This document shows positions 8,797-47,872 of a DNA stretch of 64,000 bases, in pieces. The translations under genes were made by a program, and so were the position numbers. Positions within the stretch are counted from its first letter, which is position 1. The number at the start of each line of letters is the position of its first letter. Origin of the DNA: Pseudomonas phage BRkr. The stretch lies in the sequence record LC765218.1; one strand, written 5' to 3'. A model generated the notes under the pieces. It was given only the letters and a program-made list of their open reading frames with translations. It did no database searches and was not told the origin of the DNA.

Positions 8797-10947
8797 ATGA
8801 ACCAGTGCAGTATGCCTAACCCGTTCATTCTCCCGGTCGATGAATATGCCCGTGACTTGAACATCATTGAAGGATACCTCAATGATCAGGCTCTTTATAT
8901 CTCGGCAATGACGGGAGATGATTTTGAAACCTGTCTGGAGTTTGTAAAAGAACAATCTCGTCCTCAAGGTCAATTTGCCTTGAATAATCCAAAAACCCTG
9001 GTGGTTGATAAAAACCCCCATGGTGACCGTAGTCTTAAAGAAACCACTTTTATGGGTTTTCTTGGACGCGTAAAAAAACAGAATCTTTTGCTGTCGCCGA
9101 GTATGACTGTGTATCTCCCAGAATCACAGCGACAGTCTACACACTCGCAGTATATTGCTGAAGGTGTTGCTAACCGTAAACGTGTAAAGAAAGAACAAAT
9201 GCGGCTGGAAGGTGAAGGTACTCCTGAAGCAGCAGAACTTGCCCAGGTTCGTAAAGGCGAACAAGAGAACTTCAAAATTAACAATAACTCCTATAGTGGA
9301 GCAACCGTATCAGCTGCAACAATTCTGTATTACAAGTCGACTCACTCCAGTTTGACATCGACCTGCCGTACAGCAACCTCGTATGCTAACGCTAACAACG
9401 AGAAGTTCATCACCGGTAACCGTCACTATTATAGTCCGGAAATCACCAAGGCTAATCTTCTGTCGATTGCTAACAACACCGACATGAAGAAGCTGAAAGA
9501 TTGCATCGAACATTTCAACATGCACTATCCGACTCCGGAAGAAGTGGTTGAGATGGTTCTGTATTCGACTGCGCACTATTGGCAGAACCGTGACTACACC
9601 GAACAGATTCGGATGTTGGTTACTGGCTTCACACCACTACAACGTGCTGCTGTTATGTACGTAGGTGATCTGTATCATACTTACAAACATAACAAAACTT
9701 TGATTCGCGGTTTCCTGACTGAGCTTGCTAAAGTAGGTACCGATGAACAAAAGGTTACCAAAGAAGTTTACAACACTTACGATGGTGACCTCCAACTGTT
9801 GGCTAACTTCATCTGCTTTGACTTGGTTAAAGGTCGTAACTACGACAAGCTGAGTAAAGAGTCTCCTGAAGTATTCGACAAGATCTATGCAACAGGTAAG
9901 AACATCTCTGATACGCTGTGGAAATACAAGCGTCTTATTGATGCACTATTGCTGACCAAGAACGTTCCTTCCAGCATTCATGCTTTCCCAACTGCTTATC
10001 GTCGTGCAGCTGTTATTTCCGATACAGACTCGACCATGTTCACGATGCAGTATTGGGTAGAAGAGTTCTTTGGTAAGATCACTTTCACTGACGAAGCCAA
10101 GCGTCTAGTGTTTGCGTTGGTATTCTTGGTGTCGTGTGTTGTAGCACACATTCTAGCGATTCAATCGGCTAACATGGGCGTATCGAAAGAGAAGCTCCGC
10201 CTGCTCGCTATGAAGAACGAATATTACTTCGCGGTACTTTCCCTGACCACACGTTCAAAACACTATTACGCGTCTCAAGATGCACAAGAGGGTGTTATGT
10301 TTGCTAAAGCACGTATGGAAGTTAAAGGTGTCGGCCTTCGAGATTCTAAAGTTCCACCGAAGATTAACAAGACCGCTAAGCGAATGATGGATGATATTAT
10401 TAAATCCATTAAAGCTGAAACACCTTTAGATCTACCAGCAATGTTGAAAGAAGTAGCAGATCTGGAAAGAGACATTATCGCATCTGTACGTTCTGGTAAA
10501 GCTGAATATCTTACCACTGGTAAGTGTAAGAAAATAGATGCATACAAATCTGAAGATAATGCCACTTATGCCAAACATACTTTCTGGAAAGAAGTATGCA
10601 GTCCATCCTTTGGTGAGATTGAAGAACCACCTTATAGTTTCGTAAAGATTTCTGTAACGGTGGACAACAGAACCCGTTTTAACGAATGGGTTGAATCCAT
10701 CGAAGATAAAGGCTTGGCCATGCGTCTAAAACGCTGGGCTATGGAAAATAAGAAGACTGGTATTACCAACTTCCATGTTCCAATGTCTGTTGTAGAAAAC
10801 CGTGGTATCCCAGATGAGATCACACGTGTAGCGGATGTTCGTACGATCATCTCCAACACGATGGGTGTCTTCTATCTGATCTTTGAATCTTTGGGTATCT
10901 TCCTGATCGATAAAGGTAACACTCGTTTGATTTCCGATTTCTATTAA
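8797..10947 (+). CDS. family B DNA polymerase, palm/thumb part (motif B-like KINNNSYSG, motif C ISDTDS); proposed C-terminal half of a split PolB
   Basis: Diverged KxxxNSxYG-like motif near residue 160; DTDS catalytic motif (AAVISDTDSTMF) near residue 410; possible KKRY-like GKCKKIDAY further on. The N-terminal exonuclease/motif A half is proposed to be the gene at 45929-47872 (-). Codon usage is moderately host-optimised. Confidence 0.5.
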   Translation: MNQCSMPNPFILPVDEYARDLNIIEGYLNDQALYISAMTGDDFETCLEFVKEQSRPQGQFALNNPKTLVVDKNPHGDRSLKETTFMGFLGRVKKQNLLLSPSMTVYLPESQRQSTHSQYIAEGVANRKRVKKEQMRLEGEGTPEAAELAQVRKGEQENFKINNNSYSGATVSAATILYYKSTHSSLTSTCRTATSYANANNEKFITGNRHYYSPEITKANLLSIANNTDMKKLKDCIEHFNMHYPTPEEVVEMVLYSTAHYWQNRDYTEQIRMLVTGFTPLQRAAVMYVGDLYHTYKHNKTLIRGFLTELAKVGTDEQKVTKEVYNTYDGDLQLLANFICFDLVKGRNYDKLSKESPEVFDKIYATGKNISDTLWKYKRLIDALLLTKNVPSSIHAFPTAYRRAAVISDTDSTMFTMQYWVEEFFGKITFTDEAKRLVFALVFLVSCVVAHILAIQSANMGVSKEKLRLLAMKNEYYFAVLSLTTRSKHYYASQDAQEGVMFAKARMEVKGVGLRDSKVPPKINKTAKRMMDDIIKSIKAETPLDLPAMLKEVADLERDIIASVRSGKAEYLTTGKCKKIDAYKSEDNATYAKHTFWKEVCSPSFGEIEEPPYSFVKISVTVDNRTRFNEWVESIEDKGLAMRLKRWAMENKKTGITNFHVPMSVVENRGIPDEITRVADVRTIISNTMGVFYLIFESLGIFLIDKGNTRLISDFY

Positions 10948-10957
10948 GAGGTGAATA

Positions 10958-11122
10958 ATGAGCGATCCTGAATTGAAAATGATCTATGAACGTATGCGTA
11001 AATTCACGTTTAATAAAGATGTGGTTATCGTTACAGCCAAGCAACCATGTAACGACCGCATAGTCCGTAGTGGTATTGAGTTCAAGGGACCGATCATTAT
11101 TGATTACATCGGAAAACTTTAA
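10958..11122 (+). CDS. small hypothetical protein (54 aa; below the ORF-track cutoff)
   Basis: ATG at 10958 with GAGGTG RBS 4 nt upstream; fills the gap between the PolB-part stop and hairpin 11129-11146. Confidence 0.35.
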   Translation: MSDPELKMIYERMRKFTFNKDVVIVTAKQPCNDRIVRSGIEFKGPIIIDYIGKL

Positions 11123-11128
11123 ACCAGA

Positions 11129-11155
11129 GGAGTCCTTCGGGACTCCTTTATGTCG
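11129..11155 (+). terminator. hairpin + CTTTATGTCG element
   Basis: ggagtcc-ttcg-ggactcc then tttatgtcg. Confidence 0.5.
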
Positions 11156-11176
11156 TAAATCCACAGATGAGAAAAT

Positions 11177-12346
11177 ATGATGTATAATTCCAATCCAACG
11201 CAAAATAAAGAAGTTGTATCTTTTCCTTTCGGTACTTACAATGTACTGGATGGTAATCTATGTGGTGAGATTGCTCAACCTGGAGCTAGCCGTTTCGCAA
11301 AGATCTGTACACTTGGCTTAGACTACCCCTATATGGAACAAGCATTACTGTTGGATTACAACATGTACTGCCATTTTGATGTTGCTCTACGTCAGGCATT
11401 CGCTCCGGAAGGCAAACTGATTACAGATTCTTACTCGGGTTATACACTTGCAGGATATCTACCGGATGAACTCCAAGAATTAGATGATCTTATCGCTAAC
11501 TTCATGAAAGAACATGAAGAACTCTCTAAGGATCAACTAGAAACTCTTTGGGCTGGTATGACCCTGGTTCGTCGTAGCTGGGTATTGCATGGTACAAGAT
11601 CGACAACTTCGCAAAGCCAAAGACTATGGACCCAGTACAATAACCTGATCAGCAAAAACGGTGAACTACCTGGTACACGACATGAGGTACTTATGAAAAA
11701 GATACCCACCTACGATACCGAATGTAATGAAATGCCAAAGTTCGATGGTATCGTTACTCCTCCTGAATGGTTGAGTATAAACGACGTTTTCACCAAGGGT
11801 TTCAAACCGGGCGAACTCCAAATCATTTCCTCTCCTGTATTGGACGACATTCCCAAAACGAATAGCCGTCTCTACATGTACAATAAACTTCGTGAACTAG
11901 GACATAACAACATCATGTTGGAATCTACTGATACTGAATCTGAAATGTCTACTGACCTTCTGGAACAACACCTGAGCAAAATGGAAACTGTTGAAGCTGA
12001 GCCGACCGAAATCGATTCGATCGAATCCCGCATGCGCACCCGCCGTAAGAAAAAGAAAGGTGCCAAGCGTTCCAAGCATATCACCAACTGTAAGTCCGGT
12101 ATGGTGAAAGCTTTGATGGGTGGATCTATTTTGGCTAAGCTGAGTCAGATTCAAACTCAGACCCAAGATGGTATTAAACGTGAGATCCTCAAGAACCATA
12201 CCTTGAGTTCTTTCGTTGAAACTGTTTCCGGCGAGGCTATCCCTGAGTATCAGAAACGTCTCCTGGATAAGTTCCAAGAGCGTGCTGATAGTAAACCCCT
12301 GAAACCTGTTGAGGAAGTCTCTGTACAGGACGGTGAACAGGTTTAA
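11177..12346 (+). CDS. hypothetical protein with a basic patch (RTRRKKKKGAKRSKH)
   Basis: 389-aa ORF; lies between a terminator/TTTATG element upstream and another downstream. Confidence 0.55.
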   Translation: MMYNSNPTQNKEVVSFPFGTYNVLDGNLCGEIAQPGASRFAKICTLGLDYPYMEQALLLDYNMYCHFDVALRQAFAPEGKLITDSYSGYTLAGYLPDELQELDDLIANFMKEHEELSKDQLETLWAGMTLVRRSWVLHGTRSTTSQSQRLWTQYNNLISKNGELPGTRHEVLMKKIPTYDTECNEMPKFDGIVTPPEWLSINDVFTKGFKPGELQIISSPVLDDIPKTNSRLYMYNKLRELGHNNIMLESTDTESEMSTDLLEQHLSKMETVEAEPTEIDSIESRMRTRRKKKKGAKRSKHITNCKSGMVKALMGGSILAKLSQIQTQTQDGIKREILKNHTLSSFVETVSGEAIPEYQKRLLDKFQERADSKPLKPVEEVSVQDGEQV

Positions 12347-12353
12347 CTTAAAC

Positions 12354-12380
12354 GCCCAGCTTAAGCTGGGCTTTATGTCG
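12354..12380 (+). terminator. hairpin + CTTTATGTCG element
   Basis: gcccagc-ttaa-gctgggc then tttatgtcg; 9 nt before ATG 12389. Confidence 0.5.
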
Positions 12381-12388
12381 AGGTTAAT

Positions 12389-12811
12389 ATGATCCATAAC
12401 CCAAAAGTTCATGGTCCACTACTCAGGGTTAAGAGTCATTACAATTTATCTTCTAATGACTTCGTTGTGACTGGTATGGCTGCACTAGCTGTATCAGTTA
12501 GACGGCAGATCGACCCACAACACATCTCTATTTCGATAAAGAAAGATGTATGGGATAAGCTGATCGCTAAGTACCCTAACCTAAAAGCCGAAACTGTAAA
12601 GAACAGTATTCGTAATCAGCGTTACATTCGTTTGTTGTCGGATGTATATGCTGAGTGTGAAGACGTTCCATCTAAAGATATCAATTGGTATTCTGGTTAT
12701 CAGTTCCTCAAGGCTAATGTACTGAAGAAAGAACTGATCGGTCTTCGCGCTGAGGCAACTAAGAAGAAGAATCAAGAGTTCTACGATAAACTCTTGGAAC
12801 AATTCAAATAA
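12389..12811 (+). CDS. hypothetical protein
   Basis: 140 aa; GAGGT RBS; ends at bidirectional terminator 12820-12843. Confidence 0.5.
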   Translation: MIHNPKVHGPLLRVKSHYNLSSNDFVVTGMAALAVSVRRQIDPQHISISIKKDVWDKLIAKYPNLKAETVKNSIRNQRYIRLLSDVYAECEDVPSKDINWYSGYQFLKANVLKKELIGLRAEATKKKNQEFYDKLLEQFK

Positions 12812-12819
12812 CGACATAA

Positions 12820-12860
12820 AGCCCCTACCTTCGGGTAGGGGCTGTTTATTATGTTTTTTT
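12820..12860. terminator. bidirectional terminator between convergent genes
   Basis: cgacataaagcccctaccttcgggtaggggctgtttattatgttttttt; same 24-nt hairpin as 2046-2069. Confidence 0.75.
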
Positions 12861-13934
12861 CATTTCTTCAATTAGGATAGCTACATCACGACGTAGCGCT
12901 TTAACCATTTCGGTATTACCAGCGGTTTTGAAGACTTGGTCGTTGGTAGCGTCAATCAGATCGATTAATACTTCGTTCATCTGGGAACGGTCGTAACCTG
13001 GGTTCTTCTTAAGCATGGTTACTAGATACTTAATGTACGGTAGACGTGCTAAAGTGTAAGCCCATTCGTTTTGATACGTGATAGGTTCCCGAGGAATCTC
13101 CATAACTTCGAAAAGATTAGTCTTAACAATAGCAGGAGTAATCCAAGCTAGACCTTCCAGCTCTATGCCTTTAATAGAGTTCTCAAAGTTTACATTCTCT
13201 ACGAGCTTATCAACCCGTGGAGTCATATCGGTTAGATAGAAAGGATGAGATACAGGGAAATTCAAACATTTGATACCCTGTGCTTGTCGAGATAACCTAT
13301 TGAAGTAAGCAACATCTAAATAGCTCTCTACCATGTTGGGGAGGACGATACTCCCAACGAAGCGATAGGCATTCTCTAGTTGTTCTACACCACGTTGTTG
13401 TTGCCAACGTAACCAATAGCGATATTGAACTAACAGCATTGGAATGTTAACTGTGATAACACCGTAACCTTTACCAGCTGTAGTATTATTCATCATTGGA
13501 AGATTCACGTCTGTCCGGGTATGATAAAGATATTTAACTGGAGTCAGATCTCTCCAGCGCTTTCCGAGACCCTCCTTCTCGAACTTCTCATAACTGGCTA
13601 TAGCGACTTCTTCACAGTTGGGACCTAGTGTAATCCCCTTCTCATGAATCTTCCCTCTATTAATAGCTGAGGTAAGACCAAATACGCGTGATAAACCTTT
13701 AGCCTGATCTTCAACCTTCTTTGCCCAAGCGGCATCATCAATCTTCCAGTCGATGATAAAATGTTGAATCATGTTGGCGAAAATATTAGCCGAGCCAACC
13801 GCTTTGGGGGCTCGACGGTAATACGTTTTTACATCATTGATCAGTTCCCGATACGTCCTACGGAGATAGACGATCTTTGGGTCAACTGCTTGCCCTAAGC
13901 GCCGCGCTGGGGCGTCCCGGAATAGCATGTACAT
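12849..13934 (-). CDS. hypothetical protein
   Basis: 361-aa ORF convergent with 12389-12811 across a shared hairpin. Confidence 0.55.
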   Translation of the reverse strand: MYMLFRDAPARRLGQAVDPKIVYLRRTYRELINDVKTYYRRAPKAVGSANIFANMIQHFIIDWKIDDAAWAKKVEDQAKGLSRVFGLTSAINRGKIHEKGITLGPNCEEVAIASYEKFEKEGLGKRWRDLTPVKYLYHTRTDVNLPMMNNTTAGKGYGVITVNIPMLLVQYRYWLRWQQQRGVEQLENAYRFVGSIVLPNMVESYLDVAYFNRLSRQAQGIKCLNFPVSHPFYLTDMTPRVDKLVENVNFENSIKGIELEGLAWITPAIVKTNLFEVMEIPREPITYQNEWAYTLARLPYIKYLVTMLKKNPGYDRSQMNEVLIDLIDATNDQVFKTAGNTEMVKALRRDVAILIEEMKKT

Positions 13935-13963
13935 GGTTTTCGTCCATTAGAAATTATTTCAAA

Positions 13964-13973
13964 TCTATATCAT
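13964..13973 (+). promoter_or_regulatory. early-promoter-like motif TCTATATCAT
   Basis: atttcaaaTCTATATCATag, identical to 3934-3953; 43 nt upstream of ATG 14016. Confidence 0.45.
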
Positions 13974-14015
13974 AGTTTTGATATATTCACCCTAATCAAA
14001 GAAAAGGAAATTGTA

Positions 14016-15641
14016 ATGATAAATAAAGCATTGAACAGCACGTCTTCTTATAAACTTGCTGTTGTCAATAATTCGCTCAGACGTTTCTTCGAGGAAACGA
14101 TGGGTCGAATTAACACGGATCTTTTCGTGATACATAACCCGAAATTTGTTAAAGCCATGTTCGATGAGATTTTGAAAACCCTTCCGGATTTTCATGCACC
14201 CACGGACGTTATTAATAATCACATCCGTATTCAGTTCCTTAATACTGTTTCTGATCGCGTTAAAGCGATGTCTGAAAATTTCAGTATATTTAAAGAAACA
14301 TATCAGAAAAGTAATACTGGTATTCTTTTTGAAGACTGGTATTACGAGAGACAACGCGAAGGTATCATGTTGGCTCAGTCCGGTAAATACGACGAACTTA
14401 TTGACAAAGTGGAGAATAGTGAGATGCAATCCAAAGACAAGAATATTGACATTAATCTTGCCGAAGCCATTACTGACTTCATCGCCAGCGTTATACCTAC
14501 AGAACATCGCATGGATTTCATTGGGTACAACGGCAAGTTCGTTAAAGAACTGGCAGTTAAAGTAGCTATTGATCTGGATATTCGAAACCTGCCTTCGGAC
14601 AAGATCCCAACTGTTGGGGAAGTACTGAACTTCCTTAATTCCAATTATAGCAAAGCTCTCGATGAACGAGCTATCGTTTATGGGAAATATATTAACTTCT
14701 ATAAACGTTGCTGTGAAGCCGGCCAGATGAATGGGATGCTGTTTGAAGATTGGTTGATCTCTACTGGTCGAATGGAGAAAAAGGAAATCAAACACGATAA
14801 CCCGTACATCGTTGGTCAGTATACTTCGAAAGGTCCGATTAGTTACGCGCCCTCCCAGAAAACGAACCAACTCGGTGATGATTTCATTGCTGAAACTCGC
14901 CTTCGTTCCGTGCCTTCTATTTTCCGTGGTGGTAATCGGATCAATACTGGGTTCGAACATGAAACAGTGAAAAGTTCGTCATACCTGCAAAACCCAGGTC
15001 TCACTGATCTCTACTATGCAGAGAGTGATAATAACGATAATGACAAACATGTAGAAGAGAATACGCATACACTTGATCGGATCTCTACTGCTTTCACGAG
15101 TGGTAAACTTTCCCCAGAGGAAGAAGCGCGTGCTGCTATCCATCGTGAATTTTCTGGTCCTTCTATTGCACAACTTCTTGTTGAAGAGGCTCAGCGTATT
15201 AGTGAAACCGCAAATAAAATTAATAAGGAAGGAGGCAATGTAAAATCGATGAAGATTGCGGCACTTTCGGCAGATAGTATTCGCCGGGGTGAGTATTTCC
15301 GTTCTCCGCTGACTATTGTTTTCTCTTCTATCAAAGATAAGAAGGAACGAGACTGGGTATTCTCTATCGTCAAGGCGCATGTTCGGGATTGTGTTAAAAA
15401 CAACACCATCGATCCAGTGACGGCCATTCAAGGTCTTCGCAATTTGCATTCTTCCTTTATTGAAGATGACAATCGTTTTGATGACACGATGCTCACTCAC
15501 ATGAAAGAGTATTCTTCGGCGATTGCGCAATACGCTGATCAACTCAGTAAAGTTGTGAACATTAAGAGTGCGAAGGAAATCTACAGTAAGTTGAAAGACC
15601 ACTTGGATGATCTTGAAGACCTCTTGTCTGACGAGAAATAA
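14016..15641 (+). CDS. hypothetical protein
   Basis: 541 aa; AAAAGGA RBS; promoter-like motif at 13964-13973. Confidence 0.6.
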   Translation: MINKALNSTSSYKLAVVNNSLRRFFEETMGRINTDLFVIHNPKFVKAMFDEILKTLPDFHAPTDVINNHIRIQFLNTVSDRVKAMSENFSIFKETYQKSNTGILFEDWYYERQREGIMLAQSGKYDELIDKVENSEMQSKDKNIDINLAEAITDFIASVIPTEHRMDFIGYNGKFVKELAVKVAIDLDIRNLPSDKIPTVGEVLNFLNSNYSKALDERAIVYGKYINFYKRCCEAGQMNGMLFEDWLISTGRMEKKEIKHDNPYIVGQYTSKGPISYAPSQKTNQLGDDFIAETRLRSVPSIFRGGNRINTGFEHETVKSSSYLQNPGLTDLYYAESDNNDNDKHVEENTHTLDRISTAFTSGKLSPEEEARAAIHREFSGPSIAQLLVEEAQRISETANKINKEGGNVKSMKIAALSADSIRRGEYFRSPLTIVFSSIKDKKERDWVFSIVKAHVRDCVKNNTIDPVTAIQGLRNLHSSFIEDDNRFDDTMLTHMKEYSSAIAQYADQLSKVVNIKSAKEIYSKLKDHLDDLEDLLSDEK

Positions 15642-15824
15642 GAAAAGAAATACTGGGGCTAGTTATTTAATACAGGAAATGACCGTGAGGTCCTGACCTG
15701 CTATTTGAGCTATGCCCCAGATCACTGCATACTGAAGTTTGAATCTTAAGGAAACAAATATGTAATACAGTATGTGAAGACTGAATGTCCTCAAATGACC
15801 TTGCTTTTATAGCGGGTCCTCCGG

Positions 15825-15863
15825 TCTATATTGTATTAAAAAAAATCTGAGATCTATATAACA
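15825..15863 (+). promoter_or_regulatory. tandem early-promoter-like motifs (TCTATATTGT at 15825-15834 and TCTATATAAC at 15854-15863)
   Basis: ggTCTATATTGTattaaaaaaaatctgagaTCTATATAACag ahead of the chmA candidate; the second copy shares the flank aaaaaat(at)ctgagatctatat with 25295-25320. Confidence 0.5.
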
Positions 15864-15931
15864 GTTTTGAATCCAATACACTGTTGGATCTCATTCTTGA
15901 TCAAGAAACGTTACAAACATAGGAACAAATC

Positions 15932-17797
15932 ATGATTCGTGATACCGAAACTCAAAACACTCAAGCTCAAGCCAACAACGCTCCGGCTCAAGCTGCTCCG
16001 CGCGCACAACAGGAAGCTCCTCGTATGCAACAAGCTGCACCTCAAGCTCTGCAAGGCGGTATTTCCGGCCTGCCGAACATGTTTAAACGTTCCGGTCGTA
16101 CTGATGGCGGCGACGCCCGTGCGAGCGAAGCGCTGCAAGTAATGACCCGCGTTGGCAAAGATGCCATCGACCATCAAGACCTGGAAAACGATTTCCAGAT
16201 TCTGCGTTTCGACCGTGATGCCAACCGTGTTGGCTACTCCGCGCTGCTGATCGTCAAGCACGCTGCTGGTGGTAACGGTATCATCGTAGTTCGTCCGCTG
16301 ATCATGCCGAACCCGGCAATCACCCTGCCTCCGCGTCAGGTTACCATTCAGAACGGCATGAGCCACGATCGCTTCGATGTAGACGTCGAAGTACAAGACG
16401 TATTCACCGTTCAGTACTGGAACCGCATCTGCGAATTCGTTCGTCAGACCACCGGTCGTCCGAAGGCTGAAGTACACCCGGCTGGACCGCTGCCGATCCC
16501 GGCTGAATTCGATCTGAAAGACGAAGTCCTGCTGAAAGACATTCTGATCCGTTCCGTCAACCTGTGTGACGACGTTCTGGCTAAGAAAGCTGGCGAGACT
16601 CCGTTCCAGATCGCAATGCTGCGCGGCCAAGATGAAACCCTGGCTGCCAAGATGGACTTCTCCGGTCGTCCGGTAATGGACAGCGTCGGTAACCCGATCA
16701 AGTCCGACATCGTGATCAGCCTGAACCGTACCAAGAAACAAGGTCAACAAGAGAACGAGTTCTACGAAGCAGACACCATGCTTAACCAGGTGTCGGTACA
16801 AGTAACCCTGGAGTACACCCCCACTCCGCAAGCCCAGATGTTCGGTCAACAGACCCAACCGCTGCCGCCGTTCTCCCCGGCGATCCTGGTAACCGACATT
16901 CGTCAGGCCAACTGGATCAAGGCAAACACTCTGGAACTGTACCTCTTCGCTCTGTCGAACGCCTTCCGCGTAACCGCTGGCCAGGCTTGGGCTCGTAAGT
17001 TCCTGCCTCAAGTTGGTAAAGTTAAAGACCTGGGTGACATCGGTGCTCTGGGTTGGCTGTCCAACCTGGGTAAGAAGATCGATACCAAGTCCGATACCTT
17101 CACCGATCAGAACTTCGCTGATCTGATGCTGAGCATGGTTCGTCCGAACCCGTCCTTCCTGATCGATCTGGATCGCATGGGCGACAACGCAGCACTGGAC
17201 GTAATCTTCCTGGATGCCATGGGTGGCCCGAACCAACAGAAAGCTACTGCCGCGATCATTCGCGCTGTACAGAACCTGGTTGGTGGTGGCTTCGAGCGCT
17301 TCTTCGACTTCAACACTCAGCCGATCATTGCATCGACTGGCACTGAAGTGAACAAGGGCTACTACTGGGATGGCGACGAGAAACGTGACCGTCGTGACCT
17401 GGATGCACTGGGTGCACTGAACGCTGCTGAGGGCAACCAACAAGAGTGGATGTCCTGGTACGGTACTCAATGCAACCCGAACATCCATCCGGAACTGCGT
17501 AACAAGCAATCCAAGAACTACGACCGTGCGTTCCTGGGTGCTGTAACCTACACCACTCGTGCACATCGTGGTATCTTCAACCCGAAGTTCATCGAGGGTC
17601 TGGATAAGGCGATTGCTGCTGCTGGTCTGACTGTAGCAATGGACAACGTTGCACAGGTCTTCGGTGCTCAGCGCTTCGTTGGCAACACCATGATCCAAGA
17701 CTTCGCTGTCGGTTCTACCGCACAGGTTGTCAACGGCATGGGCGTTGGTGGCGGCTACCAGATGAACATGGTAGGTTCGGTTGGTACTCTGTACTAA
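15932..17797 (+). CDS. chmA: abundant early protein; candidate chimallin (ChmA) phage-nucleus shell protein; a major capsid protein is the alternative
   Basis: 621 aa with Q/A-rich disordered N-terminus. Codon usage is strikingly different from neighbours (GC-rich third positions: CTG, CGT, AAC, GGT), typical of a very highly expressed gene. Sits directly upstream of the RNAP beta-prime N-terminal gene, which I recall (from memory) as the phiKZ gp54-gp55 arrangement. Tandem early-promoter motifs upstream. Identity rests on size, context and expression signature, not on a recognised motif. Confidence 0.5.
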   Translation: MIRDTETQNTQAQANNAPAQAAPRAQQEAPRMQQAAPQALQGGISGLPNMFKRSGRTDGGDARASEALQVMTRVGKDAIDHQDLENDFQILRFDRDANRVGYSALLIVKHAAGGNGIIVVRPLIMPNPAITLPPRQVTIQNGMSHDRFDVDVEVQDVFTVQYWNRICEFVRQTTGRPKAEVHPAGPLPIPAEFDLKDEVLLKDILIRSVNLCDDVLAKKAGETPFQIAMLRGQDETLAAKMDFSGRPVMDSVGNPIKSDIVISLNRTKKQGQQENEFYEADTMLNQVSVQVTLEYTPTPQAQMFGQQTQPLPPFSPAILVTDIRQANWIKANTLELYLFALSNAFRVTAGQAWARKFLPQVGKVKDLGDIGALGWLSNLGKKIDTKSDTFTDQNFADLMLSMVRPNPSFLIDLDRMGDNAALDVIFLDAMGGPNQQKATAAIIRAVQNLVGGGFERFFDFNTQPIIASTGTEVNKGYYWDGDEKRDRRDLDALGALNAAEGNQQEWMSWYGTQCNPNIHPELRNKQSKNYDRAFLGAVTYTTRAHRGIFNPKFIEGLDKAIAAAGLTVAMDNVAQVFGAQRFVGNTMIQDFAVGSTAQVVNGMGVGGGYQMNMVGSVGTLY

Positions 17798-37664: not shown

Positions 37665-37674
37665 GACGGCATAA

Positions 37675-39776: not shown

Positions 39777-39787
39777 TTTGTATTACC

Positions 39788-40384
39788 TTATTTCACGAAG
39801 GAAACAGTATCAACACCAGCTTCTTGCATCTTAGCAATGAGACCCATCAGCAGTGGTTGAACAGCTGTTTCTACTTTATGTTGGAGATTTGCGTAACCCA
39901 AAGTCAGCTTACCGATTTGATCGAGATCAGCCAGATCAGGTGTACCAGTTTTGTTTACGTGAAGAATACTAAGAGCTTCCAGAGCACTGATCATCTGTTC
40001 AATATCAGACATGCAGTTTTGCAGATCTTTAGAGAAACCTTCAGGATCACTGAGTTTACTCAGAATTTCTTCACGACGCTCCAGCGCCGGAATGATAACA
40101 ATGGAAGTAGCATTAAGAGCAGCAGCTGTAGTGCGATACAATTCGCGAAGAATGGCCCAGCCATCTTCTTTAATGAGTTGTTGTGCTGCTACAGCAGAAA
40201 CTTCTACAGCTTGGTCCAGTTGTTCTTTCGGGGACAGTGCGGTCATTTGATTGTGCTCCAATTTTGGATTATGGGGGAATATTTTATCAAGGGCTTCAGA
40301 GAGCCGTTTTTCATCTTCAGGAGTTGGTTTTGGATGGTGTATTGTATCCATCAAATTAAACGGCAGCTCACTAAACTTACTCAT
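39788..40384 (-). CDS. hypothetical protein
   Basis: 198 aa; GGAG RBS on the minus strand; first gene of the leftward operon. Confidence 0.55.
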   Translation of the reverse strand: MSKFSELPFNLMDTIHHPKPTPEDEKRLSEALDKIFPHNPKLEHNQMTALSPKEQLDQAVEVSAVAAQQLIKEDGWAILRELYRTTAAALNATSIVIIPALERREEILSKLSDPEGFSKDLQNCMSDIEQMISALEALSILHVNKTGTPDLADLDQIGKLTLGYANLQHKVETAVQPLLMGLIAKMQEAGVDTVSFVK

Positions 40385-40408
40385 TGAAGCTCCTAATGGA
40401 ATAGTGTA

Positions 40409-40450
40409 GTAACATAGATGTTACAGGAAACGTAACTTTTCACATATTAC
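40409..40450. promoter_or_regulatory. divergent promoter region: palindrome gtaacatagatgttac (minus strand reads atctatgttac) plus CACATATTAC on the + strand
   Basis: Lies between the minus operon starting at 40384 and the + gene at 40509; both are one-mismatch variants of the TCTATATTAC core, in the correct orientation for each gene. Confidence 0.35.
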
Positions 40451-40508
40451 GAAGACATACCTGCAACATAACCGTATGTTAGATATTCATTTATACAGGA
40501 TAATTCCA

Positions 40509-41360
40509 ATGAAAGAAATGCTAGATAGTATCCTCACTCCCCTAGTGATGGAAGAACGAAAAGAAATCATGCTTGAATGCGTAGCTTCCCTAGAGGAAAT
40601 GGATTACTCGGCAGCTCTTGATGAACTGCATACCGTTTGCTCTATTGCTGATGACAATGCAGACACTATGATGTTGCTTGGCCGTATCGACGATATTATC
40701 CGTGTGGCCCATGATCAGGTTCTAGCTGCACACGAAGTTAAAGTATCGGATGAGGCGACACAAGAGCAACGGCTTGCAATTGTCCATACTATTTTAGGTT
40801 TGCCAAATTATATTCTTCCTGACCAGATTGAGTTGATTCTACAAGGCGATTTCGATAATGAGGAAATTCTTGCTCATCTGGTACCTATGTTTGAACGCCT
40901 TTCTTTCGACGAAGTGTGGCCTTTAATTAATGAAGTATCTGTTTCTTTCATCGATGCTTTAAAAGCGATGGTGCAAGACACTATGATGACGCGTGGTCAC
41001 ATCGACGAATACATCGCTCCTGTATCCCGTATCCGTGTTCTTAATCGATTGATGAATACCATAGGTCGAGATAAGTTTAGTATGGTTCTCGAACTGTCTA
41101 ATTCTGGTATGCGAGTCGGACATGACTGGTTAGAACTCCTTTCTAATAGTCTTGAAAGCCTGGACAATAAGAACGCTCAAGATGCGGCTTATGAAATGGT
41201 AGGTCTTGCATTCTTCTCTAATCTTCACCTCGATAGTATCTATAGCACTGTTAAAGTTTCTATCGATGAATACACAGAGAACGAGATGGAACGTAATATC
41301 ATGGAACGGGTGATCGACGAGATCAAGCGTAAAATGGGAAAGCTCTATGAAACTGCGTGA
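40509..41360 (+). CDS. hypothetical protein
   Basis: ORF 40476-41360 trimmed to ATG 40509 (AGGA RBS). Upstream CACATATTAC motif at 40441-40450. Confidence 0.5.
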   Translation: MKEMLDSILTPLVMEERKEIMLECVASLEEMDYSAALDELHTVCSIADDNADTMMLLGRIDDIIRVAHDQVLAAHEVKVSDEATQEQRLAIVHTILGLPNYILPDQIELILQGDFDNEEILAHLVPMFERLSFDEVWPLINEVSVSFIDALKAMVQDTMMTRGHIDEYIAPVSRIRVLNRLMNTIGRDKFSMVLELSNSGMRVGHDWLELLSNSLESLDNKNAQDAAYEMVGLAFFSNLHLDSIYSTVKVSIDEYTENEMERNIMERVIDEIKRKMGKLYETA

Positions 41361-42690
41361 TTATTTCCTTTTAGGAATTAAAGCTGGTCTATGTAAAAAA
41401 CGTGCATGGATGAACAGTCTGTTCAACATCGTTTATAATAACGATGATATTCCTAACATGCCTTATAAGCCACATTTTGGTGAAGGCCGAATGTGGTTCT
41501 ACATGCCGAATGGCGATGAGAAAATTTTCATCGATGATTACATCGAAGGTCGAGCTCCTTTACACTTCCGTGATGAATTCATTTTACAACCGGGTGAAAT
41601 AGAAAACTACAAAGGTACTGAACCGTTACGTACTACGTATGGTAATGTATTCGTTAACTACCTCTGTCTGGTCCTTCCGTTCGGGGATATCTTCCCATTT
41701 CAGACAGGATATTTCTCACCTGCTAAAATTGAGAATGAGCTGCTAGATAGACTGATTGACGACCGTGAAGATGGTAACGTCACTGAACGAGCACCGGATG
41801 GTAAGATCTACGTTTGGCAATATCTAATGTTTGCGGATCATTGTCTAGCTATTCCCGCTTACGCAGATAGCCTTGTTACTTCTGTTACACGTAAATCGAT
41901 GACTGCTCACCCAGACAGAGATAAAGTACGTACAGCTCTTTTGGAACAATATAAAGATCAATTAACTGACCCAGCTATTGTTGCAAAAATAGGTAACGAA
42001 CTTATTAAGATGGATGAAGAGTATCTATCTGACGATGAGTCGTATGAGTTCTATGATGCAAAACATGCTAAGCTATTCGGCGGTGTTCGTAAGAAAGTTC
42101 ACTATCTATTTGGTGGTGAATCTCCGTTCTCGGATGGTACGTCGGTTGAACTTATCTCTAAGTCACTTGAAGAAGGCATTGATACAGATCACATGCCTGT
42201 GATGAACAACTCTCTTCGTTATGGTTCTTATAACCGTGGTGCTCAGACTGCATTGGGTGGCGAGTCCACCAAGACTATTTATCGAATGGTCGGTACAGTC
42301 CGAATTATAGAACCTGACTGTAAAACACATATTGGTGTTCCAACGCGAGTAGATAAGTTTAATGCTAAAGAACTCGTTGGTTACACTATGGTTAAGGATG
42401 GAGAATCCATTCTTATTACCTCTGAAAACATTGATGGACTCATGGGTCAAATTATCGATGTACGCGGTCCAATGACGTGTAAGTCTGGACGTGACATTGA
42501 AAAGGGTATCCTTGGACGAGATAAGAATATCTGTGCTACTTGTGCGGGTAAAGCTCTTGCTGAGAACCCCAACGGTATTCCTGCTGCGGCAGCTGGTGTG
42601 GGTGGACGCTTCTTGAGTATCTTCATGTCGAAGATGCACAGTGCTACTCTGAAGACTGTTAAATGGGACCCGGTCCGTCGTCTTTCTTAA
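41347..42690 (+). CDS. second RNA polymerase beta-prime-like segment (bridge helix + Zn-II, ending at the start of the trigger loop)
   Basis: [24 protein letters not shown] resembles the bridge helix [86 protein letters not shown] parallels VRSVVSC...GVCAHCYGRDLARG...[25 protein letters not shown]. Distinct from 32495-34468, implying a second RNAP set. Confidence 0.6.
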   Translation: [447 protein letters not shown]

Positions 42691-42695
42691 GACAA

Positions 42696-42718
42696 AGGGG
42701 AATCTTACCAATTCCCCT
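42696..42718 (+). terminator. stem-loop after the second beta-prime-like gene
   Basis: aggggaat-cttacca-attcccct; weak U-tract. Confidence 0.4.
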
Positions 42719-42752
42719 AATTCTTTGACTATTCACAAACTAGGAAATCCCC

Positions 42753-44183
42753 ATGGCTAAAAATCGAAATCGTGGTTTCTCTATTCCTACCGTAGCTAAA
42801 CTGGTAGAACCTGTTACTCCCGTTATTCCGGAAACTCCCCAAGAGACACCGGTTGAATACGGTCCCCTTTCTATTGAAGAACTACAAGCTGCTTTCGAAG
42901 GTCATGATGACAACGAAGTAGCAGCACTCGTAGCTCCTGTTCTAGCTGCACTTCATCGTGATGCGTTCTATGATGACGATGGTCGGATGCTGACTTGCGG
43001 TGAAGTTGTTGATAAGTTCGATACCGATGTTGAATCTGAAGCCGAAGCTGAAGACAGTGGTGACCCTAAAGGAGAAGAAGAAAGTGATCTCGAAGAGACT
43101 ACTGATCTTCCTCCGGAAGGTGAAACCGAAGAAGAGCTGGCTGATCCAGAACCTACCCCCGCTCTGGTCGATCTGCTTCGAGAAGAAGCTACCGCAGCTA
43201 TTTCTGAACCTGAAGTAGTTGAGGAAGTCAAGCCTCTCGTTGATACTCCTGTATCGGGTTGGACTAAAGAAGAACTCGAACTGTATATCAAAGGCGAGCT
43301 TGTTGAAGATGTTCGTTACAATGTTCTGAAGGAAGCTATTGTTGAACATCAACGCCGTGAAGCTACTCTTGATCTAGCCTGGAATCCACAGCAATGTAAA
43401 GAGTTCCTTGTCAGTGGTATTGTTCCTGACAAAACTTCTAAAGGTGCTTGGAAATCCGACATCACTCGTTTTGCACGTAAAGCAACTCAATGGACCACAC
43501 AAGAACTTGAAAGCTGGGCTCTTGGTGAGATTCGCCCAGAGGGTTCTACCAGTGAACCCGCACTGGCCGTTGAACTGAAAGAACGTTTGATGTTGGTTAG
43601 TAAGAGCAATGCTCCTGAAGATGTCATCCTGGCTTATAAAGCTCAAACCGGACAGACAACTCAGACTACCCATTTGACCGGAACTATTCCGACTGCGGCT
43701 GCTCCGAAAGTAGATGTCGAAGCTGTTCGTATCCAACTCTCCTACGAAGGACTTACCGAAGTGAACCAAACTTACATTGAAGAAACTCTCAAGAAATACA
43801 AAGAAATTTGTGCTCCGGGTAAACCACTGACTCCGCAAACTGGTGTCATGGCGCAGAAACAACTGGATAACGTTATTCGTTATGTTATCAATCTCGAAGA
43901 TCCAGTTGGCTTTAAGAACGGTATGGAAATTATTCGGAAATTCATCACCGAAAACCGTAAGTCTCCTGGCCTGTTCGATGATAGCCATGCATTCCGTTTC
44001 ACTGATGGTTTGAGTGTTCAAGGTGGTGTACAAGAATCGCACATTCAGATCCTGACTCTGTTCTTCATCTTCGCCGATGAGAACAAAGAAGCGCGGACCC
44101 AGTACGATGTTCCTAGTCTGGTATCCCTCTTCCCGACTAAGCGTCAACCTCTCCTGCTTCAGTACTTCCAACAAGTACAGTAA
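42753..44183 (+). CDS. hypothetical protein with an acidic low-complexity N-terminal region
   Basis: 476 aa; AGGAAA RBS; acidic Glu/Asp/Pro-rich region (residues ~75-130). Confidence 0.6.
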   Translation: MAKNRNRGFSIPTVAKLVEPVTPVIPETPQETPVEYGPLSIEELQAAFEGHDDNEVAALVAPVLAALHRDAFYDDDGRMLTCGEVVDKFDTDVESEAEAEDSGDPKGEEESDLEETTDLPPEGETEEELADPEPTPALVDLLREEATAAISEPEVVEEVKPLVDTPVSGWTKEELELYIKGELVEDVRYNVLKEAIVEHQRREATLDLAWNPQQCKEFLVSGIVPDKTSKGAWKSDITRFARKATQWTTQELESWALGEIRPEGSTSEPALAVELKERLMLVSKSNAPEDVILAYKAQTGQTTQTTHLTGTIPTAAAPKVDVEAVRIQLSYEGLTEVNQTYIEETLKKYKEICAPGKPLTPQTGVMAQKQLDNVIRYVINLEDPVGFKNGMEIIRKFITENRKSPGLFDDSHAFRFTDGLSVQGGVQESHIQILTLFFIFADENKEARTQYDVPSLVSLFPTKRQPLLLQYFQQVQ

Positions 44184-44190
44184 ACATAAC

Positions 44191-44220
44191 GCCCTCCCTT
44201 CAGGGAGGGCTTTATGCCGG
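44191..44220 (+). terminator. hairpin + CTTTATGCCGG element
   Basis: gccctccc-ttca-gggagggc then tttatgccgg. Confidence 0.5.
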
Positions 44221-44256
44221 CAATGGTATAGGTTTTAAGAAAGAACAGGATTACAT

Positions 44257-45525
44257 ATGTTCGAATCATTATTAGCAGTTCTTAATAAGTACGATGATAC
44301 ATTTCCACCAGGATCACAAATTCCAATTGCTGGTAGTGATTACTTTAGTTATTTCGGTGGGTTTAAAGCAGGCCTACCACAACCTGAAGCATTCTCTAAT
44401 CTAGTTGGTTTCACAGAGGGTACATTACACACTAGTGAAACAACTTGGTTTAAATACAAAGAGAATAACAGACTTATTTATTTACCGAAAACACCTTTTA
44501 GACGAGGCGCTGCTAGATCGATTATAGAGAACCATGGACTCATCGATGGTAAGGAAATACAGATCGGTAGACATAAGTTCCTATGTCGTGTTATGACGGG
44601 TATTGATAACCCTGGTGCCAGTGCAACTGGTGGCGGCGAATATAACCGTTTGGTTTATTCGATGGTAATACCCAGACAATCTGGTGCAGCGGCATTTGAG
44701 TCATTCTCAACAAGTGACTTTGGTTTAGCTAGTACCGGTGGGGCTAATTGGGTACGTGAAGTCCAAACTACTGGTACTGACGTAGGTAAAGGCTTCTATC
44801 GTGGTTTTAATTCAATCAGCTATGTGGGTAGAGAAGTAGCTGGTTCAAATATGAATAACTACGGATGGCGTCCAATTCTAATTTGGATTGACCCGGACAT
44901 TATTCCATCGAAAGGACCTGGTACTGAATCACTTATAGCCGGTAATGACGATATAGGTTACTTTGGTCGTGTCCCATCTAGTGAATTAATTACAGCATCT
45001 GCGTTAGCTACCTTAGTTGGTTTGAGCGAGGGGACTGTTCTTAATGAGGCACCGGACTGGTTTAAGTTCTCTCACAGAAGTACCATTCTTTATATCCCAC
45101 AAAAACCACTCAAAAACAACATGACATGGAATTCTCTGGCAAGTGCTGGATTGAATGGTAGGGGTAAACGAATCACTATCGGTGACAACGTATACCAGTG
45201 TCGATTGATGTATATTGGCGCTACCGATACAGGTATAACCAATAACGCTGCTCCAGGAAGAGAATGGCGTGATCTAATGTATAACGTCCATGGAACTGTA
45301 ACCGGTACAAAGGCATGGGAAAACTTAACCAACGCTGATCTCGGGGTAGGTGGACAAGGAGCCGGTAGTTATAGCTGGGGTCAGGAAACTGGCTTAGTCG
45401 ATGGTAAAACAGCATATGCCGGTATCGGTTATAGTAACATGTCCCAGTTGAATATTAACGTACCCACCAATACGGGTGCACATATGGGTTGGCGTCCTGT
45501 TCTAGAGTTGATTGGTAAAGCTTAA
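44257..45525 (+). CDS. hypothetical protein built from two tandem ~210-aa repeats (possible fibre/receptor-binding or other structural protein)
   Basis: Halves align: EAFSNLVGFTEGTLHTSETTWFKYKENNRLIYLPKTPF...GWRPILIWIDPD versus ASALATLVGLSEGTVLNEAPDWFKFSHRSTILYIPQKPL...GWRPVLELIGKA. Confidence 0.6.
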   Translation: MFESLLAVLNKYDDTFPPGSQIPIAGSDYFSYFGGFKAGLPQPEAFSNLVGFTEGTLHTSETTWFKYKENNRLIYLPKTPFRRGAARSIIENHGLIDGKEIQIGRHKFLCRVMTGIDNPGASATGGGEYNRLVYSMVIPRQSGAAAFESFSTSDFGLASTGGANWVREVQTTGTDVGKGFYRGFNSISYVGREVAGSNMNNYGWRPILIWIDPDIIPSKGPGTESLIAGNDDIGYFGRVPSSELITASALATLVGLSEGTVLNEAPDWFKFSHRSTILYIPQKPLKNNMTWNSLASAGLNGRGKRITIGDNVYQCRLMYIGATDTGITNNAAPGREWRDLMYNVHGTVTGTKAWENLTNADLGVGGQGAGSYSWGQETGLVDGKTAYAGIGYSNMSQLNINVPTNTGAHMGWRPVLELIGKA

Positions 45526-45534
45526 CGGCATAAA

Positions 45535-45554
45535 GCCACACCTAATGGTGGGGC
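45535..45554. terminator. bidirectional imperfect hairpin between convergent genes (aacggcataaag flank)
   Basis: gccacacc-taat-ggtggggc with one mismatch. Confidence 0.4.
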
Positions 45555-45563
45555 AATATGTTG

Positions 45564-45932
45564 TCAATACCCTTTATTCAAGAGTTCTGCTAAAGCGCGT
45601 GCTTGTGAGATATTAGTCGATGCAAAGACATCAGAAAGATATCCTTCGTTTGCTTCAGCTCCTTTACGAAGTTCTTTCATCAGGTCAGGATTCGCCTTTG
45701 CCCATGTTTCCCATAGAGCTAAATATGCATCCCATGAGTTTATAGGACTCAACGGAGGCTTGCCTTTACCGAGCTTCCAATTAGTACCACCAACATCATA
45801 ACCTTTAACATCGCATTGGTAGTGCATCTCAATAGTTCGGCCATCGGGCATTACAGCATTTAAGGCGGAGAACCTTTTATCGCCAACGGAGGAACATTCG
45901 TATCCTCCGCGACGTTTCCATCGATATATCAC
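45564..45932 (-). CDS. hypothetical protein
   Basis: 122-aa ORF; 4-nt overlap with the upstream minus gene. Confidence 0.5.
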   Translation of the reverse strand: MIYRWKRRGGYECSSVGDKRFSALNAVMPDGRTIEMHYQCDVKGYDVGGTNWKLGKGKPPLSPINSWDAYLALWETWAKANPDLMKELRKGAEANEGYLSDVFASTNISQARALAELLNKGY

Positions 45933-47872
45933 TTTGGGGAGTTAGCCTTCTTATCCAAATAAAGCTTCAGCATCTCATCCAGCTTCGGAGCCTTCATGAT
46001 TTTCTGACAGATCTCAATGGCATTAACACGTCCACCTGTCAAGTTCACACCTACTTCTCGACGATGATGTTCGGAGATATCTTTCATCATGGAGAATTCC
46101 ATGACAGTTGTTTCCCGAGCGATATTGAGAATCTGACTAACGTTCGGATAAGTCGAAACGATGTCAAGGTCAGCTACGTGACTAAAGATCAAAGTCTTGT
46201 AATCAGGTAAGTCCTTAACACACTTCAACCCATTTGGACCAGCCATATAGGACGGCAGTGTAACAATCCAGCTATCATGACCTACAACGTATTGATCTAG
46301 CTCGTGAACCATCTGGTCGGAGCTAGTGCCAATTACGCATGGCTCAGGACGGTTCAGATACCAGAAGTGCATGTCATCACAGAGACGCTTCGGGTTAGAG
46401 CTGAAGTTCTTATAGTCAGAAGACTTAGAGAACAGAGTAATCGAACTAGCAAGGTCGTTGATCTTTTCATCCAGTTGTTCCAGACGAATGGAGTCAATGA
46501 TGTTGTAAAGACCATAACGAACCTTGTGGTTCTTCTGCATCTCAATGTGCCATTCGATACCACCAAGGTGATCAGTTTCAGCAAACTTAAGTTTACCAAA
46601 GTTCATTGTGTAACGAACATGGTTACCTAGGTGCACAGTTTCACCCCAAGTGAAATGCTCTACCGGTGTCCAATCATCCTCTTTACCGCTATAGTTAACA
46701 AACAGATACGGATAACTACCAGGACGTTCTACCAGAAGTTTATCAAGACTCTTCTTGAATTTAATCAGATCTTCTTCACCAAGAATCTCTGTCTCTTCAT
46801 CAACGTTTAGCTCCTTCTTAAGAATATAGTCGAGAGCATACGAAGGCTCTTTACCTTTAGCAAGACGAGTTACCCGATACGTAGACATCGCATCAATGGG
46901 TTGGAAAGAGGCAGGACATGTAATCCAATGCCACTGATCTTCAGGTCCCTTAGATTTAGTAACACCAGAAGCGGTAGTTGTCATCGCCTGGTCTTGGCGG
47001 AAATGGAAATACTTGTAATTATTAGGAACAGACGGATCGCTAAATACAAGTGCCGGATCAACTCCTGCATCTTCCAGGGTCTTCAAGATTCGACTCATGT
47101 CGAAGCTGATGTTCCAGAAAGAGAAGAAGTCTGGTTTCCATTCGTGTAGCCGCTTAATACAGTTAATGACAATGTGAACTGGTTGATCAACCACTTCGAT
47201 TTCTATTTTAAGATTACGGCCATTACGAAGTGCAACCAATTCAGGAATACGTTCTAGTTCCTCGAACGTTTCTTTCACGGGGTCTTTAAGATCACTAACC
47301 CAATGTTTAAGATAGGCAAGATAAACGTTTTCTTTATGGCTTACGGACATACAGATAATCTGTCCGTCTTTTCCATCTTCGTAAACGTTGGTCTCAATAT
47401 CACCACCTGCTACCGTGTTACGAGAAATGAGATCAGGTGCAGCAGTTCGATAATCGTTCTTCAAGCAGCATACAGAACTAACGTCCGCACCATACAGGTA
47501 AGGACTTCGACTCAGTTGACGAAGCCTAGGGTTAGGTCCCATGCTGTAATCACCCAGAGCTTTAGCAATCGCATGCGGCATGTTAATCTGGGTAGACTTA
47601 CGTTTAATAAGCTTACTAGCGTACTCATAGTCTTTCTTCTCATGATAAGTACGCTGGCTTTCTTTTTTATTTGCTTCAGGATCCAGCCACCATGGCCGTT
47701 CATAATCCTCAATAAACCTCAGTCGTGGAATCCTGCGTTTATCTTTAAGATGCACGACTTCTTTAACAACATGTAAGTCATGCTTACGGTGATTCCTATC
47801 GGTGACGTATGTAATATGTTTAGCCTCGACACCGATTACATCTTCTTTACTGAAAGAAATATTATCACTCAT
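45929..47872 (-). CDS. family B DNA polymerase, N-terminal part (3'-5' exonuclease motifs I-III plus polymerase motif A)
   Basis: Exo I VAGGDIETNV, Exo II WNISFDMSRIL (YxxxFD type), Exo III YGLYNIIDSI, and motif A HVADLDIVSTYPNV (DxxSxYPS); the protein ends ~100 aa after motif A with no motif B/C, which are found in 8797-10947 (+). Confidence 0.65.
   Translation of the reverse strand: MSDNISFSKEDVIGVEAKHITYVTDRNHRKHDLHVVKEVVHLKDKRRIPRLRFIEDYERPWWLDPEANKKESQRTYHEKKDYEYASKLIKRKSTQINMPHAIAKALGDYSMGPNPRLRQLSRSPYLYGADVSSVCCLKNDYRTAAPDLISRNTVAGGDIETNVYEDGKDGQIICMSVSHKENVYLAYLKHWVSDLKDPVKETFEELERIPELVALRNGRNLKIEIEVVDQPVHIVINCIKRLHEWKPDFFSFWNISFDMSRILKTLEDAGVDPALVFSDPSVPNNYKYFHFRQDQAMTTTASGVTKSKGPEDQWHWITCPASFQPIDAMSTYRVTRLAKGKEPSYALDYILKKELNVDEETEILGEEDLIKFKKSLDKLLVERPGSYPYLFVNYSGKEDDWTPVEHFTWGETVHLGNHVRYTMNFGKLKFAETDHLGGIEWHIEMQKNHKVRYGLYNIIDSIRLEQLDEKINDLASSITLFSKSSDYKNFSSNPKRLCDDMHFWYLNRPEPCVIGTSSDQMVHELDQYVVGHDSWIVTLPSYMAGPNGLKCVKDLPDYKTLIFSHVADLDIVSTYPNVSQILNIARETTVMEFSMMKDISEHHRREVGVNLTGGRVNAIEICQKIMKAPKLDEMLKLYLDKKANSPK

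Follow-up and report, generated by a model that had tools for sequence, protein, structure and literature searches.

The subject of this text is a pair of genes in Pseudomonas phage BRkr (sequence record LC765218.1), of which a stretch of 64,000 nucleotides, here called the window, was analysed. The genes lie 34,981 bp apart on opposite strands, and each encodes a protein with part of the motif set of a family B DNA polymerase (PolB). In the 647-amino-acid product of the minus-strand gene the three exonuclease motifs begin at residue 156 (GGDIETNV), 253 (WNISFDMSRI) and 453 (YGLYNIIDSI) and polymerase motif A at 568 (DLDIVSTYPNV). In the 716-amino-acid product of the plus-strand gene motif B begins at residue 160 (KINNNSYSG) and motif C at 409 (DTDS). 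A first-pass annotation, made from the letters of the window, had described both open reading frames (ORFs), these motifs and the opposed orientation. All are present as it stated. The motifs are not due to chance: the exonuclease residues proved invariant in an alignment of 36 homologues of the shorter protein, and the key residues of motifs B and C in 122 of the longer one.

Because the polymerase-half gene is nearly identical to that of Pseudomonas phage vB_PaeM_PS119XW (99.9% DNA identity) and to those of PA1C, HHBS36_1, phiHQ and phiLBG22 (99.6-99.8%), the window is assigned to a PhiPA3-like, phiKZ-related, nucleus-forming jumbo phage of ~300 kb. Identity to the PhiPA3 gene itself is 78%. 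The features of the two genes, and of a third gene which adjoins one of them, are collected in Table 1.

Table 1. Positions in the window and residue numbering of the two polymerase genes and their products
Feature	Coordinates	Strand	Description
Exonuclease/motif A gene	45929-47872	minus	647 aa; probable N-terminal subunit of split PolB
Polymerase-half gene	8797-10947	plus	716 aa; probable C-terminal subunit of split PolB
Motif A and NIxxET helix	46106-46171	minus	codons 568-589 of the 647-aa product, DLDIVSTYPNVSQILNIARETT
SH3-fold protein gene	8208-8615	plus	directly upstream of the polymerase-half gene; PF20287
647-aa product, layout			N-terminal domain, 3'-5' exonuclease, first palm segment with motif A, 55-aa family-specific C-terminal extension
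647-aa product, exonuclease residues			Exo I D158/E160, Exo II N254/D258, Exo III Y456/D460
647-aa product, motif A			D568-L-D570-I-V-S-T-Y575-P
716-aa product, layout, first part			palm hairpin, fingers with motif B (K160xxNNNSYSG), ~200-aa helical insert
716-aa product, layout, second part			motif C (D409-T-D411-S), KNEYY (473-477), S-K488-H-Y490, thumb, C-terminal TRLISDFY

The exonuclease/motif A chain

The 647-aa protein belongs to PHROG 3011, 'DNA polymerase' (E 1.7e-234); a Pfam scan of it returned no family. All six residues expected of a DEDDy exonuclease, in Exo I (DxE), Exo II (NxxxFD) and Exo III (YxxxD), are among those invariant in the alignment of 36 homologues. When the family profile was compared with T4 gp43 by hhalign, residues 225-594 fell on T4 185-432 in one unbroken alignment (E 1.2e-5) that spans Exo II, Exo III and motif A. 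A HMMER profile of the family, run against the PDB sequences, found RB69 gp43, and a second short stretch of that match sets HVADLDIVSTYPNVSQILNIARET on RB69 404-432, which is motif A and reads DLTSLYPSIIRQVNISPET in the RB69 protein.

The AlphaFold model of the protein is confident over residues 1-517, the predicted local distance difference test (pLDDT) score being above 85 for most of residues 10-510, and the top Foldseek matches of the model are all RB69 or T4 gp43 (E 9e-12), with a template-modelling (TM) score of 0.63 to the T4 N-terminal fragment 1noy. Residues 518-647, motif A included, are disordered in this model of the lone chain (pLDDT 30-50), and such disorder is counted in favour of a two-chain enzyme. 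Motif A, which has the general form DxxSLYPS, is canonical in every one of the 78 homologues whose called ORF extends to it, and is exactly DLDIVSTYP in 68 of these. The region that follows it in the homologues, ~590-647, has the conserved pattern R.E.GVNLTGG..NA.EI. The extreme C-termini of many homologues (...DLAA, ...SSAA, ...DRAA or ...VEAV) have a look like that of an ssrA tag, whereas the protein of the window ends ...ANSPK.

The polymerase chain

Over its full length the 716-aa protein belongs to Pfam PF20286, the 'divergent family B DNA polymerase' family (divDNApol) of group 1 jumbo phages. It scores 1042.9 bits against a gathering cut-off of 25.7 bits, with residues 14-716 on profile positions 3-705 of 705, and is also a member of PHROG 2927. 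Many of its homologues in addition exceed the gathering score of PF00136, the general PolB family (E 2e-5 to 7e-9); these matches start only at profile position 82, and they cover the fingers and motif B. Motif B, of the KxxxNSxYG type (K160-I-N-N-N-S-Y-S-G168), lies inside the PF00136 match 82-200. Its residues K160, N163, N164, S167 and G168, and D409, T410 and D411 of motif C, are invariant in 122 polymerase-half sequences; S412 is a serine in 121 of them.

Invariant also is S487-K488-H489-Y490, preceded by an invariant K473-N474-E475-Y-Y. The first-pass annotation had noted a possible KKxxY motif. The motif does not lie at any KK dipeptide: it is SKHY that stands in register with T4 KKRY when polymerase-half profile positions 494-548 are aligned by hhalign with T4 gp43 712-762, in a match that is weak alone (E 0.054). 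In the N-terminal 65 residues F10, Y17 and R19 are invariant. The top 50 Foldseek matches of the 716-aa model are all T4 or RB69 gp43, their low TM score of 0.18 being due to the imperfection of the model; neither single-sequence nor HMMER-profile searches found a PolB match for this protein among the PDB sequences.

The place of the break

The general PolB profile was calibrated on T4 gp43, in which residues 365-492 correspond to PF00136 positions 18-144. On this scale motif A (T4 D408) lies at about position 61, NISPET at about 76-81, and position 82 is at about T4 residue 429. Since the PF00136 match of the polymerase half runs from position 82, that half begins exactly at the end of motif A. 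A re-joining test in silico gave a matching result. Residues 61-257 of the polymerase half matched PF00136 82-200 with 23.0 bits by themselves, and the native residues 1-257 matched the same positions with 22.1 bits. With residues 535-593 of the exonuclease/motif A chain placed before residues 61-257, a single PF00136 stretch, 59-200, was matched with 33.5 bits (E 2.7e-8), a gain of 10.5 bits over the polymerase piece alone. The tail of the 647-aa protein supplies motif A in register (positions 59-81); the polymerase half's own N-terminus contributes nothing.

On these sequence grounds the two halves appear to meet near T4 residue 430 with no overlap, at a point within the palm that is ~20 residues past the motif A aspartate. 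The earlier claim that the products are each incomplete and are complementary together stands in the form that one would reach to T4 432 and the other start at about T4 429. Its assignment of motif A to the minus-strand gene is likewise supported, by the RB69 and T4 alignments and by the re-joined match, and the predicted location of the motif is therefore the exonuclease chain. Joined, the halves carry every exonuclease and polymerase motif in the order in which gp43 of T4 and RB69 has them. A scan of the window found no second PolB, full-length or other, and the 716-aa protein does have PolB profile similarity, to PF20286 and PF00136; for a further polymerase in the rest of the ~300-kb genome, the surveys of Kazlauskas 2011 (PMC3201878) and Iyer 2021 (PMC7824862) were relied on.

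A proposed composite active site

The explanation that we favour, and hold to be likely, is that the two genes are obligate halves of one family B replicative polymerase, the split polymerase of the Chimalliviridae. The 647-aa chain would provide the N-terminal domain, an intact proofreading exonuclease, and a palm strand and helix with the metal-binding D570 and the steric-gate Y575; the 716-aa chain would provide the remaining palm (DTDS, KNEYY and KHY), the fingers with motif B, and the thumb. The chains would assemble non-covalently in the phage nucleus, and the active site formed there would be a composite one, with D570 and Y575 from the 647-aa chain and K160, D409/D411 and K488/Y490 from the 716-aa chain. 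The likely interface is made of the family-specific segments at the break, ~590-647 of the first chain and 1-65 of the second, possibly together with the SH3 protein. It is likely, if a little less so, that the same holds in all Chimalliviridae, the motif A aspartate and steric-gate tyrosine being given in trans by the 'exonuclease' chain. The assembled two-chain protein is predicted to have both polymerase and exonuclease activity. What speaks for the two-chain enzyme is the homology of each half to PolB, the complementary limits of the two matches, the conservation of the motifs including motif A, the co-occurrence of the genes with no fusion among the homologues listed, and the knockdown phenotypes of both orthologues in phiKZ, where each gene is of consequence for growth (Gerovac 2025, PMC12571901). 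There is precedent for such assembly in the split gp43 polymerase of the type found in T4-related Aeromonas phages, whose subunits co-purify (PMC2988022).

Several points weigh against this explanation. The hhalign probability of the match between the 647-aa family profile and T4 gp43 is only 81%. In an AlphaFold run on a fusion of the tail to the polymerase half, the tail was left undocked with a pLDDT of 20-50 (it was modelled without alignment depth, so that this does not count as a negative result), and in the same run scores below 50 were also given to the strand of motif C, to the KNEYY region and to the residues next after motif B. The 716-aa chain has three further aspartates, D77, D291 and D331, which are invariant among the 122 homologues, and one of these might in principle take the place of the motif A aspartate. 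Lastly, Kazlauskas and Venclovas 2011 (PMC3201878) place both catalytic aspartates, D229 and D398, on the polymerase chain of phage EL.

The alternative to which these points lead is that of Kazlauskas 2011 (PMC3201878) and Iyer 2021 (PMC7824862): the 716-aa protein would be a self-sufficient polymerase with its own motif A, and the 647-aa protein a stand-alone proofreading exonuclease whose tail is a structural relic. The published maps and the description of the exonuclease as possibly stand-alone (Iyer 2021, PMC7824862) favour it, as do the three invariant aspartates, the undocked tail and a short stretch near the start of the polymerase half, 'RDLDII..Y', that is like the 'ADLDIVSTY' of the other chain. 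It was nevertheless judged improbable. When EL gp021 is aligned to the 716-aa protein of the window, EL D398 corresponds to D411, and EL D229 to D229, a site that is D in 101 of the 122 homologues, N in 12 and P in 7. D229 was rejected as the motif A aspartate, and is unlikely to be a metal ligand, because it is not conserved and is located after motif B, outside the canonical order. Also rejected was the idea that the polymerase half has a degenerate second motif A of its own near the N-terminus: the RDLDII..Y likeness is not significant (hhalign aligned 8 columns, probability 10%), its Asp and Tyr positions vary, and it brings no gain in PF00136 score. Nor would a relic be expected to keep D-x-D-x-x-S-x-Y-P family-wide, as the tail of the exonuclease chain does. 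The N-terminal segment concerned, residues 17-39 of the polymerase half with Y17-x-R19-D-L-(D/N)-I-I...Y-I-S-A-M-T, has a loose likeness to motif A followed by NISPET, and was put on the real motif A by MAFFT time and again; it may be a relic of an overlap from the gene split.

Two other accounts of the separation were weighed, both far less probable than the last. Joining of the halves by a split intein through protein trans-splicing, as in Nanoarchaeum equitans PolB, has in its favour that inteins, split ones included, are frequent in PolB genes and that the PA5oct-like jumbo phage MIJ3 has one. Yet the tail of the exonuclease chain is variable (...KKANSPK in the window, ...DLAA or ...VEAV elsewhere) and the polymerase half starts MNQCSMPNPF; read by eye, these ends show neither a block A start with Cys or Ser nor a TxxH block, nor a terminal HN with C, S or T after it, and there are zero Pfam intein or Hint domain matches in either protein. 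With the splicing blocks absent from the broken ends and no such Pfam match, a split intein was excluded, and its likelihood is very small. Least credible of all is that the separation is an artefact of assembly or annotation, or that one half is a pseudogene. No supporting point for this was found, both ORFs are intact at 99.6-100% identity in six independent phage records, and both genes are present in ~300 genomes with their catalytic residues under strong purifying selection.

Distribution and history of the split

By tblastn the exonuclease/motif A gene was found in 290 phage records and the polymerase-half gene in 306, with equal counts for the two in Pseudomonas (80 and 80), Erwinia (62 and 62), Salmonella (24 and 24) and Vibrio phages (23 and 23). 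The genes are apart wherever coordinates were compared, with a spacing of 30-95 kb in PhiPA3, 201phi2-1, SL2, CR5, Goslar and Rebecca. No fusion of both halves was found in the top 120 homologues of either, none of which is longer than 733 aa. An exhaustive profile search gave 1350 cluster representatives of the polymerase half, and the best 150 of these held no fusion to an exonuclease half. Because of this widespread co-occurrence, the separation everywhere compared and the lack of any fusion in these sets, the split is regarded as ancient and fixed in the Chimalliviridae clade. The same 150 representatives share one start point with a single exception, P0313 (967 aa, metagenomic), in which a 258-aa N-terminal extension precedes the polymerase half. 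By eye the extension is like a T4 RNase H or FEN-type 5'-nuclease (GAEADD and SSDDDF motifs); P0313 may show a PolA-like order of domains on half of a PolB, or else be a gene-calling read-through.

The first-pass annotation had called the arrangement unusual and of consequence for annotation. This was overstated: the split is published for the whole family, and RefSeq and PHROGs already give both genes the name 'DNA polymerase'. Publication of the split goes back to 2011-2012. The polymerases of phiKZ-like phages were first recognised, with exonuclease and polymerase as separate chains, by Kazlauskas and Venclovas 2011 (PMC3201878), and a passage of Thomas et al. 2016 (PMC5105663) refers to the phiKZ 'split subunit DNA polymerase' and credits it to Cornelissen et al. 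2012. Iyer et al. 2021 (PMC7824862) described the divergent polymerase and the long helical insert in it, an exonuclease gene at another place in the genome, and the SH3 gene that lies upstream; in Gerovac et al. 2025 (PMC12571901) phiKZ050 and phiKZ082 are both antisense-knockdown hits with phenotypes. In RefSeq PhiPA3 gp047 and gp085 are each annotated DNA polymerase; in several records one or both genes are 'hypothetical protein', both being so in PS119XW. The sole increment of the present analysis is the placement of motif A, predicted from sequence, on the exonuclease chain, in disagreement with one published figure.

Group I introns near motif A

Of 120 called homologues of the exonuclease/motif A chain, 42 end either at ...GHxxW(I/M) or, within motif A, at HVAD(LD), and because their ends fall at one of these two sites, interruption of the gene would seem to be widespread in relatives. 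In PhiPA3 (NC_028999) gene 085 has a 306-nucleotide ORF-less group I intron (8591-8896, minus strand; RF00028, 71.7 bits, E 4.5e-18) between the D570 and I571 codons, such that exon 1 closes with HVADLD and exon 2 opens with IVSTYPNV; the RefSeq coding sequence is truncated at the intron. The second site, ~35 codons upstream and after ...GHDDW(I/M), is occupied in an uncultured relative, L004 (a 226 kb contig from Logan SRR25046491). There, in the region 4573-5956, a group I intron core (RF00028, 75.8 bits) follows an ORF for a 370-aa HNH endonuclease, and exon 2 resumes TLPSYMAG...HVADLDIVSTYPNV. The palm-coding 3' end of the gene is a hot-spot for group I introns in the relatives. The gene of the window is intron-free, and the site equivalent to that of PhiPA3 is between its codons 570 and 571. 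The intron sites in the motif A segment are counted as support for the two-chain polymerase because such sites are expected in conserved essential sequence.

Neighbouring genes

The product of the gene directly upstream of the polymerase-half gene matches Pfam PF20287, 'SH3 fold domain associated with phage DNA polymerases' (E 2.9e-45). The gene is present in 167 phage records, being just upstream of the polymerase-half gene in PhiPA3 and adjoining it in FBPa36, and its neighbourhood has been described by Iyer 2021 (PMC7824862). Gerovac 2025 (PMC12571901) gives phiKZ049 as the SH3 interactor of the polymerase. The protein encoded at 8208-8615 in the window is this SH3 protein; its gene is a conserved partner gene, and the product a candidate accessory subunit.

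The exonuclease/motif A gene is flanked on one side by a paralogue of a virion structural protein (44257-45525, plus strand; PHROGs 1062 and 16120) and on the other by a conserved protein of unknown function (47981-49228, plus strand; phrog_2767). Given the identity of both flanking genes, this replication gene stands outside any replication module, amid structural and unknown genes of the opposite strand. An ORF of 122 aa on its own strand (45564-45932, minus; phrog_9995, function unknown, no Pfam match) begins 4 nucleotides ahead of its stop codon. The same small gene comes next after the exonuclease/motif A gene in PhiPA3, as gp084, and at 6358-6654 of L004, a distant relative, and the 122-aa product may be a conserved, translationally coupled partner.

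Consequences

If the two-chain polymerase with its composite active site is correct, the published domain map is in error where it gives both catalytic aspartates, EL D229 among them, to the polymerase chain, and the 716-aa 'divergent DNA polymerase' would have no activity by itself. The extensions that flank the break would then be a dedicated assembly interface, and the motif A region a recurrent homing site of group I introns. For expression of a phiKZ-family polymerase, co-expression of the 647-aa chain, perhaps plus the SH3 protein, is predicted to be necessary for activity. In annotation both genes are best named as subunits of one polymerase, and 'DNA polymerase, exonuclease/motif A subunit' and 'DNA polymerase, fingers-palm-thumb subunit' are suggested. 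The general picture of jumbo-phage replication, of which a split PolB is already part, is unchanged.

Comparison with known systems

T4 and RB69 gp43 use the gp45 clamp, none having been found in phiKZ-like phages (Kazlauskas 2011, PMC3201878). They are the closest solved structures for both halves, and the same order of motifs is obtained on concatenation of the window's two proteins. They differ in being a single chain without the ~200-aa helical insert before motif C and without the break-flanking extensions. In archaea, Methanothermobacter PolB1, by an account attributed to Kelman and colleagues in 1999, is reportedly a two-subunit enzyme, a PolB from two genes whose products must combine, and the PolB halves of Nanoarchaeum are said, in work ascribed to Choi and colleagues in 2006, to be ligated by a split intein. 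The archaeal split PolBs are broken elsewhere, at intein sites nearer motif C, and the proteins of the window, unlike those of Nanoarchaeum, are without intein features.

The split PolB of phiKZ-like phages is made of direct orthologues: phiKZ gp050 and gp082, PhiPA3 gp047 and gp085, 201phi2-1 gp144 and its partner, and EL gp021 and gp051. They have in common with the window the two-gene build, genes that are distant and often on opposite strands, and the upstream SH3DP gene. The PhiPA3 proteins gp047 and gp085 are respectively 84% and ~69% identical to those of the window, and apart from the group I intron within motif A of PhiPA3, which the gene of the window lacks, there is no difference of substance.

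The T4-related Aeromonas phages 44RR and 25 also have a PolB broken within the polymerase domain, as gp43A and gp43B, and the halves form a complex (PMC2988022). In 44RR motif A is with the exonuclease half and motifs B and C are on the other, gp43A being equivalent to T4 residues 5-500 and gp43B to T4 512-897. The break in these two phages is at the tip of the fingers (T4 500-512), whereas in the Chimalliviridae it is at ~430, and their cistrons are adjacent and co-oriented, with a short spacer or a homing endonuclease gene between them. Theirs is a recent and sporadic split, confined to two phages; that of the Chimalliviridae is a different and much older one, with its genes dispersed.

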